A stretch of 64,000 bases of DNA, from assembly GCF_054482595.1 (NCBI RefSeq), contig NZ_JBTHVH010000004.1; one strand, written 5' to 3'. Shown piece by piece: positions 45,001-48,000 of this stretch. The stretch is from a plasmid. The first letter of the stretch is position 1; each line of letters starts with the position of its first letter. The position numbers were made by a program.

Positions 45001-48000
45001 GTATGGAAGAGTTTCTGGAAGGGGCCCAAGAGATTGAACGAGAGTTTCAGGCAGGTATTCAAAACGTTGTAGACAATTATGAGATGCATATTGAGGCTGA
45101 AAAAAATAGAAGCCCAAGAATGTCTTCTTTGATTGATCAGTTGAAATTAACTAAAGATGATTTCATAAAATCCTTTAGATTTAATATTGCTCACTTTATT
45201 CCTTTTACGCCTATTAGCGTTGAAGGTGATGAAACCCAGGACTACTATCAGGAACAATTGATAACAGATCTGGCAGAAGAAGCAATGAAGGTTTATGAAA
45301 AAATTAGCAAAAATAACAATTTGCGCTCAAGTACTATTGACCGACTGAAGCAAATGCAAAATAAGATCATTAGCTTCATGTTTATACATAAAGAGGCGGC
45401 AGTACTTGCAGAAGCTATAAAACACATAATGAATAATTTACCTAAAGGTGCCATTTCTGAACCTCGCGACGTTGCGGTGTTACAGCAGTGGTTTTATTTC
45501 ATGAGTGATGCTTCAATGTTAAAGCGTATTATTTCAGGAGAGCAAAAGGTTACTGACTGGTTGGAATCTATTACCAGATCATTTAATCAAAGCTCACAAA
45601 CAGAACCGAACGCGCTACAGAACACAGGTATTGAAGCTATTTTAGATTCAACAAATGTGTTCCAGGTTGAACCTGTCGTAGAGAACGATATAAATAACAG
45701 CACGTTTTCAAACACTGATCCTGTAGCTGAACCTGAGAAATCAGTTTCGCAACAGGAAGACAATGTTGAAAATGGTTTTGATATCGAGCTCAAAGGCTGG
45801 TAACTGTTTGCTTTATTAAAAACCCCAGATGGGTACTTCACCATCTGGGTGAGTACCCCTTTTTTATAAAGAGGTATTCTATGAAATTAGATCTTAAATC
45901 ATCACCGCGCCATATTAAGCGTTTACAGAATATAGCAAAAGTCATTAGCGGCTTAGGCGATGTAAGAGTTGTAATAGACGACAATACCAAAGGACCGTAT
46001 TTTGATCCTGTAAATAAAGTTTGTGTTTTACCAAACGGCGATTATAGCGATGATGACTTTGTCAGTCTGATTGAAGGTTTTACCTGTCATGAAGCTGGTC
46101 ATGGTCGCTATACCGACAGCGAGGTTTACAGTGACGCCTTTAATAGTGTTCTCAAGTCATCTGAAGGGTTTACACGCTTCGATGACGGAATGAATGCAGA
46201 GTTTGAGAGCCTCGCTGAGAAACGTAAAGCTTATAGCAGGGCAAAACGTCTTACCGGGCTTATAAATCTGTTCGATGATGTACAGATGGAAGAGAAGGTT
46301 GGTAACGATTATCCGGATGCAAAGCGGCGGCTTGCAGCCACTTACGCACTGATGGTTAAAGCCGGAAGGATGACTCCTGATATATCTTCTCGTCCGGAAA
46401 ATCCTGTCCTATTTATTGAGTGGTATCTGCTTAACTCATTGCGAGTAAAAGTCCTTCAGCAGGCAGGTCACAAAGAAACACTCGATCCGTTTTTTGACTA
46501 TGCCCAAAAGATACTTTCTCCAGTAATTTCTGATGTTGAGGAAATTTTTCATGATGCTCTTGGTTGTGAAAATACTCAGGGCTGTGAATCCCTTGCTCGT
46601 AAGACCCTGGCTCTTTTAGAGAGACTGCGGGATGAGGCAAGGGAACAACAGCAGCAGACAGAGCAGGAGGAGCAGGAGGCATATGATGAATCCGAGACCG
46701 ATACCGATACCGATACCGAATCAGAAGATAAATCGCTTGAGTCGACTGATAGTCGTGAGGATGATTCTGAGGACGATAGTGAAGGTCAGGCAGATACTTC
46801 CGATAACTCTGATCTTGCTCAAGAGGGATGTTCTGAGCCTTCAGAACTTGCTGAAGATAACGAGGGAAATAATGAACCCACCGGTGGCAATCCCACAGGT
46901 GATAACATTATTGAAGACGATACTGATGCGATTAACCCTTCCGAGAGTGAATCAGATGAAGCCAGTTCGACTAACGTTGAAGATGAAAGTAACTTTTCAT
47001 CGGCTCAATGGGAGATACTGGCAGATTTGTTGGATGCCTTTCTTGGCAGTGATGAGGATAGCGAAGATTATCACGATGCTTTGGCTGAAGAGATTGAAGG
47101 TATTGCATCAAAAGTATCCGATGACGTGAAAGCCGAATTCGGTGCTTCTGAATGGGATATCCCTGATCTCCTTATCGATTTGAATGTTTACAATGAGGCT
47201 TTGTCTCTGAGTCATTCAATCGGTAGCGACTTGTCTGTTTTACAGCAGGTTAAAATGCGTGGCCGAAACAAAACTCATGAGCGTGGAATTACCTTCGATG
47301 GAAATCGATTAATTCTGTCACCAATGGGAGTTCGTGATGTCTTCAGAGCTCAAAGCGAATCTAAAAATAGAGGGCATGTTGGCCTCGTATTAGTTCGTGA
47401 TATTTCAGCGTCAATGGCTAATGATGAAAGATATATTCATGCCATTAAGTCAGATCTTGCTTTATCGATGGCCGCTGAAAGTTTGTCAAAAATGCATGTC
47501 TCCAATATAGTCTTTCCCTTCAAGGAAAGTGAATTTGAGATTATCAAAACGTTTGATCAAAGCGTTGAGGAATCTCTATCGAAATTCACTCTTGGATGTA
47601 AGGGTTATTATACCCCTACGGGATCGGCTTTAATGGCAGCTGTTGATCTGTTACTTGACAGCCAATTCGATAGGAAAATAATTTTTCTTATAACTGATGG
47701 TTATCCGAATAAATCGGAATTTACTATCGGCGAAGTTATGGAAAAGGCTAAATGTAATGGAATAGAAATCGTTGGTGTTGGTATTAAGACTGATGAAATA
47801 ATTGGTTTTGAAACGGACACTTTCGTAACAGTTGATGATACTTCTTTATTGTCTATTGAAGTCAGTAAGCTAGTTCATCAAATACTTTCTTAATAAACTC
47901 TACCCAATCGGGGCAAAAGGCCCCGGTGGGTCTTTTTGCTCCATGAAGGAATAAGGAGCAAAATATGACTCAGATAAAAACTTACCGTGTAGAACATGAA

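Follow-up and report, generated by a model that had tools for sequence, protein, structure and literature searches.

The closest described relatives of the genes considered here are CobT and CobS of the aerobic (class I) cobaltochelatase CobSTN (PDB 9uka and related entries), and several pieces of the picture are already known: the CobT family itself, the M48-like character of its N-terminal domain (a 2026 preprint), the motor-adaptor logic of MoxR-VWA pairs, and the occurrence of 'cobST' genes in viruses and on plasmids. [quoted passage not shown] The β-sheet/β3-α2 loop region of CobT-N is the part that forms the substrate cleft in active zincins. Here we describe a CobT-like gene in 64,000 nucleotides of RefSeq assembly GCF_054482595.1, contig NZ_JBTHVH010000004.1 (this whole stretch is called the window below), which comes from an IncHI2 conjugative plasmid carrying mcr-1. 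A 4.6-kb block around the gene recurs at 99% identity or more in 1,105 PLSDB records, pHNGD64-NDM (IncHI2A, MOBH, MPF_F) being one of them. An acidic linker, an M48-like N-domain and a VWA domain are generic to the CobT family, and what distinguishes the plasmid family is that the catalytic motif is kept. Together with an AAA_5 ATPase and a DUF3150 protein, the CobT-like protein makes up a module of conjugative elements that probably serves to remodel or cut proteins at the expense of ATP and not as a B12 enzyme. The gene and its N-terminal features are as follows.

45881-47893, + strand: CobT-like VWA protein gene, 670 residues, RefSeq WP_072692376 'VWA domain-containing protein' (open reading frame (ORF) list, pHNGD64-NDM annotation, homolog family)
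45881-46639, + strand: N-terminal CobT-N / M48-like zincin domain, residues 1-253
46088-46102, + strand: HEAGH, residues 70-74, with H70 and H74 as putative zinc ligands and E71 as putative catalytic glutamate (conservation in alignments)
46265-46291, + strand: NLFDDVQME (N129, D133, E137), candidate 'glutamate helix' with the third metal ligand (conservation, helix in the AlphaFold2 model)

A preliminary description of this locus, made from the sequence alone, had pointed to CHEAGHG in the N-terminal domain as a possible metalloprotease motif. The motif is present, and conservation in the family supports it. From the composition of the protein 0.022 occurrences of HExxH are expected by chance, but the weight of the motif comes from its conservation rather than from this low expectation. 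An exhaustive phmmer search over 1.84 billion cluster representatives, with no selection on HExxH, returned 95 relatives, 72 of them full length; 69 of these 72 carry HExxH at about residue 60-85, followed by an acidic stretch after about residue 200 and by DxSxS about 360-400 residues downstream. In an alignment of 70 sequences with a mean identity of about 25%, P51, H70, E71, H74 and D133 are invariant and G66, N129, E137 and R188 nearly so, and the HExxH column stays invariant in relatives down to about 20% identity. A pooled set of 146 sequences, partly selected on the pattern, has HExxH in 146/146, with D133 in 146/146, E137 in 145/146, N129 in 139/146 and E71 kept in 145-146.

The AlphaFold2 model of the N-domain, built on the 70-sequence alignment, reached a predicted local distance difference test (pLDDT) of 97 and a predicted template modelling score (pTM) of 0.92. 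It runs from a helix (residues 9-23) through three strands (29-50) to a helix with HExxH (58-77) and a later helix (111-143) with N129, D133 and E137, the near-invariant D133 and E137 lying on this last predicted helix at i/i+4 spacing. The predicted topology matches the description of CobT-N, which is the canonical zincin arrangement. Structure prediction had been proposed earlier as a check on the motif, and in the model the motif helix does fall inside a zincin-like fold. A Foldseek search of the N-domain model against the PDB gave no significant match. In a structure comparison of the same predicted model it could be superposed on known zincins, with the HExxH helix following a small β-sheet; the zincin matches, which were interleaved with helical-bundle noise of high root-mean-square deviation, are given below with score, length and deviation.

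Ste24p (M48A): 7.2, 161 aa, 3.7 Å
ZMPSTE24 (M48A): 6.6, 159 aa, 3.8 Å
BlaR1 (M56): 6.7, 141 aa, 6.6 Å
Metallocarboxypeptidase 1 of T. cruzi, 3dwc (family not assigned): 6.3, 133 aa, 4.5 Å
Projannalysin (minigluzincin): 6.2, 95 aa, 3.0 Å
3c37 (M48): 6.1, 129 aa, 3.4 Å
BepA (M48): 5.8, 117 aa, 2.9 Å
ArdC (zincin): 5.8, 112 aa, 3.7 Å
Spartan (SprT-like): 5.7, 115 aa, 4.4 Å
Selecase (minigluzincin): 5.4, 96 aa, 3.1 Å

Judged by sequence, the N-domain is a divergent homolog of CobT-N. Pfam CobT (PF06213) matches 42 of the 70 family N-domains, the best at 1.4e-14, with no match for the query itself, and the best PDB match of the family profile is solved CobT, 9uka_G residues 23-236 (E = 0.0096). A CobT_C/VWA match adds to the homology with CobT. 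In the HMMER alignment genuine CobT has 'GD--SMALR' opposite the family's 'DHEaGHvR' and 'EQARVE' opposite 'EDvRmE', and genuine CobT has lost both histidines, the catalytic glutamate and D133.

Behind the N-domain the protein consists of a linker, a conserved segment and the VWA domain.

46640-46996, + strand: acidic disordered linker, residues 254-372, 119 residues (composition)
46661-46679, + strand: GAGCAGGAG x2.1 repeat (EQEEQE) in the linker (Tandem Repeats Finder, TRF)
46692-46719, + strand: CCGATA x4.7 hexanucleotide repeat encoding (T-D/E)n (TRF)
46997-47368, + strand: pre-VWA region, residues 373-496
47252-47374, + strand: conserved segment, residues ~458-498, at the position of the CobT 'shaft' (conserved residues; probable homology)
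47369-47890, + strand: VWA domain, residues 497-670 (Pfam VWA E = 7.8e-7, PDB profile matches)
47399-47413, 47612-47614 and 47696-47698, + strand: MIDAS residues D507-I-S509-A-S511, T578 and D606

A MIDAS-like signature had been seen at the C-terminus, and the VWA fold is upheld by the Pfam match, by a complete MIDAS (D507, S509 and S511 each kept in 145/146 of the pooled sequences, T578 in 142/146, D606 in 143/146), and by matches of the C-terminal family profile to solved VWA/I-domains (3rag at 1e-9, 4rck, collagen VI, integrin alpha-X and CobT). Conservation extends into the pre-VWA region, with G469 in 144/146, L477 in 123/146 and F488 in 141/146.

The linker, estimated beforehand at about 120 residues of D/E/S/T-rich low complexity, measures 119 (D+E 38%, S+T 24%, K+R 3%, hydrophobic 8%, net charge -42). 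A GATACC microsatellite at about 46690-46710 had been said to encode TDTDTDTE within it; the repeat is real (residues 273-280, CCGATA being the other register), but it extends about 10 nt further than was given. Slippage had also been suggested, and a comparison among related plasmids agrees with it: the repeat region is 535, 541 or 547 bp long in IncHI2 plasmids, and in an alignment of five of them, otherwise 97-100% identical, the indel lies exactly inside the hexamer array, which has 3, 4 or 5 units. Every variant keeps the reading frame, and the annotated proteins run to full length. Since the unit is 6 nt within an ORF, the repeat only adds or removes a Thr-Asp/Glu dipeptide in the disordered linker. 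A phase-variation switch through the microsatellite was considered and rejected, as a 6-nt unit with every variant in frame cannot turn the gene off. Among homologs the length and repeat content of the linker are hypervariable and its acidity is retained; the linker is an evolvable spacer, weakly constrained in length and sequence. Separately, Yersinia- and Buttiauxella-type homologs (P0043-P0050) have tandem QQQDG/QQQDS repeats in place of the acidic linker, and the number of blocks differs between near-identical proteins of 601-722 residues, a larger-scale counterpart of the IncHI2 hexamer polymorphism.

The CobT-like gene lies downstream of the trh transfer genes, including trhN and trhI, within a run of genes on the same strand: the trhI helicase gene, three hypothetical genes, the AAA ATPase gene, a 57-residue ORF, the DUF3150 gene, the VWA gene, a 73-residue ORF and a Toprim/primase-like gene. 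Those around the VWA gene are listed here.

43249-44307, + strand: CobS-like AAA_5 (MoxR-clade) ATPase (PDB profile matches, PHROG 249, motifs, synteny)
44439-44612, + strand: 57-residue ORF, annotated hypothetical, between the genes for the ATPase and DUF3150 (pHNGD64-NDM annotation, translation)
44676-45803, + strand: DUF3150 protein, 375 residues (PF11348 in homologs, AlphaFold2 model, synteny)
47965-48186, + strand: 73-residue conserved ORF after the VWA gene (equal position in IncHI1A and IncHI1B plasmids)
48300-49532, + strand: DUF7146/Toprim_3 primase-like protein, often found near the trio (PHROG 510 DNA primase 1.7e-27, annotation, Toprim in several relatives' loci)

The preliminary description had spoken of an adjacent CobS-like ATPase. 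CobS-like it is, with Walker A GESGSGKT (43555-43578), Walker B LILLDE (43741-43758) and PDB matches to midasin AAA modules (7e-21, the best), NorQ (1.8e-9), CobS (2.3e-8, nearly full length) and also CbbQ, but it is not adjacent: it lies about 1.6 kb upstream, with the 57-residue ORF and the DUF3150 gene between, and a small ORF is common at this place in relatives too. The DUF3150 protein, a third partner, was absent from the earlier account. Its AlphaFold2 model has a helical body (residues ~10-305) and a disordered tail (residues 308-375, nt 45597-45800) that ends in ...ELKGW. DUF3150 tails are often acidic and tipped by one to three aromatic residues (...DDDDESAFF, ...GDFWF), the last residue being F, W or Y in 70/72 (loci L013-L092). 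Such a tail, an acidic run with terminal aromatics, resembles the C-terminal interaction tails of the single-stranded DNA-binding protein (SSB) type.

The three genes are kept together well beyond IncHI2. A genome scan limited to one genome per species yielded 205 relatives. The 80 loci retrieved from these, some of them on named plasmids, belong to Gamma-, Alpha- and Desulfuromonadales-type Proteobacteria and to one acidobacterial metagenome-assembled genome; they were scanned with hidden Markov models. The DUF3150 sequences were harvested from the loci, and a profile search for further DUF3150 homologs added almost nothing. Among the 61 loci with at least 4.5 kb upstream, DUF3150 stands directly upstream of the CobT-like gene in all 61 and the ATPase is present in 60, with the one-strand order ATPase, DUF3150, CobT-like in 58. 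The trio recurs in four metagenomic or genomic contexts that were retrieved independently, accompanied there by SSB, a PDDEXK nuclease, a UvrD helicase, a DUF7146-Toprim primase and NrdD. The identical block is found in IncHI1A plasmids (68% identity) and in Klebsiella IncFIB/IncHI1B plasmids (38%), and by tblastn the N-domain occurs in 1,970 of 72,556 PLSDB plasmids, 1,774 of them conjugative. An AAA_5 ATPase and a VWA-MIDAS protein are thus conserved together, as in MoxR/AAA_5-VWA motor-adaptor pairs. As a separate observation, a WGR-domain protein is found near CobS/CobT-like genes in phage RHEph10 (L093, gp034 annotated WGR) and on a plasmid-like contig (L011), where the match is faint and lies between the ATPase and DUF3150 genes; it is possibly a further recurrent neighbour.

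While homology, fold class, motif conservation and synteny are shown, we infer complex formation, proteolysis itself, the identity of the client and the biological role, and we propose, with middling confidence, that the trio is an ATP-driven, MIDAS-targeted protease with DUF3150 as its client or third subunit. The earlier suggestion of an ATPase-regulated protease or adaptor is supported. In this proposal an AAA_5 ATPase, DUF3150 and a CobT-like adaptor would form a three-gene machine of MOBH-type conjugative plasmids and related elements. By homology with CobS/CobT, the ATPase would form a hexameric ring, on which the CobT-like protein would dock through its N-domain while its pre-VWA 'shaft' segment enters the pore, the long acidic disordered linker tethering the two halves of the adaptor. 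A client would then be held with the N-domain on one side and the MIDAS face of the VWA domain on the other, as CobN is in the chelatase and at the very place where the HExxH site lies, and would probably be cut and not just remodelled, because the N-domain, unlike that of genuine CobT, keeps the full gluzincin set (H70-E71-x-x-H74 with D133/E137). DUF3150, with its aromatic-ended disordered tail, would be the likeliest to serve as client, substrate or third subunit. From its surroundings of replication and recombination genes (primase, helicase, SSB and exonuclease), the module probably has its role in replicating DNA or in establishing the element, not in vitamin B12 synthesis.

A number of observations weigh against this proposal. 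The first ~260 residues of the query match no Pfam peptidase or CobT model, VWA being the only domain found in the protein, and none of the 70 family N-domains matches a peptidase Pfam family at E ≤ 0.001, the single weak peptidase-type matches being MPTase-PolyVal (6e-3) and Peptidase_M2 (0.037). The HExxH count from the genome scan (75/76) is biased, as HEAA and ED.RIE were among the search patterns and an 8-sequence subset alignment was used; the phmmer figure of 69/72 is the fair estimate, and the MIDAS and synteny counts are free of that search-pattern bias. The predicted fold of DUF3150 gave no hint of function, its role as client is drawn from synteny, and the searchable literature holds no biochemical or genetic data on the module. 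The characterised MoxR-VWA systems (CobST, NorQD, CbbQO) are remodellers or metal-insertion chaperones and not proteases (bioRxiv 10.64898/2026.07.21.739949), and the conservation of HExxH could also be explained by the binding or handling of a metal.

These last points lead to the explanation that survives best next to proteolysis, a non-proteolytic MoxR-VWA motor-adaptor that remodels its client or inserts metal, the HExxH/E site binding a metal for structure, sensing or delivery. It is possible, though we doubt it. All characterised relatives of the ATPase-VWA pair (CobST, NorQD, CoxDE and CbbQO) act in remodelling or metal insertion, NorQ, CobS and CbbQ are among the structures that the ATPase matches, genuine CobT uses its N-domain purely as a surface to bind CobS and CobN, and the lack of a peptidase Pfam match suits this explanation as well. 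However, E71 corresponds to the general base of zincins and is dispensable for metal binding, yet it is invariant along with both histidines and D133/E137. The motif has decayed in genuine CobT, where the domain only binds, and because of this we would argue, from sequence comparison, that selection maintains catalysis in the plasmid family. A protease is favoured because the general-base glutamate and candidate third ligand are kept wherever a DUF3150 or phage context replaces CobN and have decayed in genuine CobT.

It is also conceivable, but unlikely, that the protease serves establishment or anti-defence, with a recipient host protein as substrate (a restriction or defence factor, or an SSB-interacting protein) and DUF3150 as a targeting or decoy subunit. 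The module is in the backbone of ~1,970 mostly conjugative plasmids, its primase, helicase, SSB and exonuclease neighbours are typical of establishment functions, and the SSB-like look of the DUF3150 tail would fit. On the other hand, PADLOC, which is a tool for defence and not for anti-defence systems, found no defence-system match for the query, nothing experimental was found to tie the module to such a role, the similarity to ArdC goes no further than the shared zincin fold, and the module lies downstream of trhN and trhI. A more far-reaching reading is offered tentatively: the trio might be a hitherto unrecognised type of split ATP-dependent protease in which an AAA+ ring drives a VWA/MIDAS adaptor with an N-domain zinc-protease blade, cutting during establishment either DUF3150 or a host protein of replication or defence that the SSB-like tail of DUF3150 recruits, and CobT might be a descendant that lost catalysis and was repurposed to clamp CobN.

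That the genes are genuine cobaltochelatase subunits, a plasmid CobS and CobT borrowing the CobN of the host to raise cobalamin synthesis, seems very improbable. Sequence homology to CobT and CobS would allow it, and relatives are commonly annotated 'cobalamin biosynthesis protein'. Hijacking of CobN has moreover been proposed for the cobST clusters of archaeal and bacterial viruses (PMC8651126). The scores, however, are far under the cut-offs: NCBIfam TIGR02442 (cobaltochelatase) gives 33.5 bits where 779.45 is needed, and only over the VWA part, and for the partner ATPase TIGR01650 (CobS) gives 34.4 bits against 558.55. No CobN-like ORF is present in the 64-kb window, where the sole ORF above 1100 residues has no NCBIfam match; the constant third gene is DUF3150 (61/61 loci); the N-domain keeps a protease motif that is missing from genuine CobT; and the neighbourhood is one of DNA replication and recombination, not of cob genes. 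As to hosts, E. coli is not known to make cobalamin de novo, Salmonella uses the anaerobic CbiK route without CobN, and cobN is not known from the enterobacterial hosts. The cobaltochelatase reading was rejected on the sub-cut-off scores, the window without CobN and the DUF3150 partner, in line with the earlier suggestion that this is no cobalt chelatase.

That HExxH and the microsatellite arose by chance in a low-complexity VWA protein and have no significance is barely credible and is refuted by conservation: the motif is short enough, at ~0.02 expected per protein, for isolated cases to arise across the proteome, but here it is invariant at one alignment column in distant relatives and sits on the expected helix of a zincin-like fold.

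In the searchable literature there are only annotation-level mentions of these genes, with no function assigned to any gene of the trio, and we found no account of a full catalytic motif kept family-wide in non-chelatase CobT-like proteins, of an invariant DUF3150 trio on plasmids and elements resembling integrative and conjugative elements, or of the conserved aromatic C-terminal tip of DUF3150. The module belongs to the backbone conserved in IncHI2, IncHI1 and IncHI1B plasmids and is also carried by related mobile elements across Proteobacteria, and the plasmids that carry it spread last-line resistance genes, mcr-1 and NDM among them. Should the N-domain prove to be an active protease that a MIDAS adaptor couples to the AAA+ motor, the trio would represent a novel design for an ATP-dependent protease, the module would be a plausible and targetable factor in plasmid establishment or replication, and the M48-like domain of genuine CobT would be a pseudo-protease derived from an active ancestor. 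It is probable that hundreds of phage and plasmid genes have been wrongly labelled 'cobalamin biosynthesis'.

Several other features of the window were recorded. The mcr-1 colistin-resistance gene lies at 59987-61612 on the + strand (NCBIfam MCR-1 model, 1302.7 bits against a cut-off of 1100). Between 40400 and 49900 there are 21 terminator-like GC-rich hairpins where 6.5 ± 2.7 are expected, and they occur in almost every gap between the genes of the same-strand run (44626-44656, 47907-47927, 48192-48209 and 49542-49564, for instance); partial terminators, structures that stabilise RNA, and repeat elements are possible readings of them. Two adjacent hypothetical genes of ~310 residues, 53343-54281 and 54447-55409 on the + strand, are paralogs (27% identity over 309 residues, E = 3e-37) and belong to a row of five ORFs of similar size (50403-55409); no similarity is detectable for the remaining three. 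Three weak NCBIfam matches, all sub-threshold and on the + strand, were seen: a PRTRC system protein D of the actin/ParM-like fold family (20833-21870), a ParA-type partition ATPase (15473-16726), and a Tus-like replication terminus-binding protein (57994-58974), with which the RefSeq annotation concurs. A 1260-residue ORF in the transfer region (25810-29592, + strand) matches no NCBIfam family at E ≤ 1e-5.

Like the plasmid trio, the MoxR-type pairs NorQ/NorD, CbbQ/CbbO, CoxD/CoxE and RavA/ViaA combine an AAA_5/MoxR ATPase, a hexamer in these pairs, with a VWA-MIDAS adaptor that acts on a third protein; however, no zincin domain with intact HExxH has been reported for their adaptors, and they act on metalloenzymes or Rubisco. 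The AAA_5 modules recur in Midasin/Rea1 and BchD/ChlD, midasin being the best PDB match of the plasmid ATPase, and in both a D/E-rich linker is followed by a MIDAS domain, the acidic linker being a recurring design of the clade. In midasin, unlike the plasmid trio, all parts are fused in one giant eukaryotic protein, and BchD has a degenerate AAA domain in place of the zincin-like N-domain. An analogous architecture is found in DUF2201-type proteins, which have a PF13203 putative metallopeptidase N-domain and a PF09967 VWA-like domain and occur beside MoxR ATPases. As none of the 70 family N-domains matched PF13203 in a Pfam scan, these are at most distant analogues.

The M48, M56 and minigluzincin peptidases (Ste24/ZMPSTE24, HtpX, BepA, Oma1, BlaR1, abylysin and selecase) share the fold class with the N-domain, with HExxH...E on two helices by a small β-sheet. 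The plasmid protein differs in having no sequence-profile membership, in being soluble with no transmembrane helices, and in the fusion to VWA through a linker, and its activity is putative. Phage CobT/CobS pairs, such as Rhizobium phage RHEph10 gp043/gp044 and Vibrio phage ICP2 gp41/gp42, share HExxH (HEVAH and HECYH), the acidic linker and DxSxS; the phage CobT-like proteins also have a downstream (E/V)D...E and an AAA_5 ATPase partner, and are set among replication genes. A tblastn search of the IncHI2 N-domain against phages found no match, the sequences being too divergent, but a more central family member (P0088) did retrieve phage CobT-like genes. In contrast to the plasmid trio, the phage order is reversed, adaptor then ATPase, and no DUF3150 lies within ~6 kb. 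CobT/CobS itself is like the plasmid pair in the succession of its domains, with the M48-like N-domain, the disordered acidic linker, the pre-VWA extension, the VWA domain with MIDAS and the clade-6 AAA_5 partner. Unlike CobT/CobS, the plasmid family keeps HExxH and D133, has DUF3150 in place of CobN, follows the order ATPase, DUF3150, adaptor, and is carried on a conjugative element and not in a cob operon.

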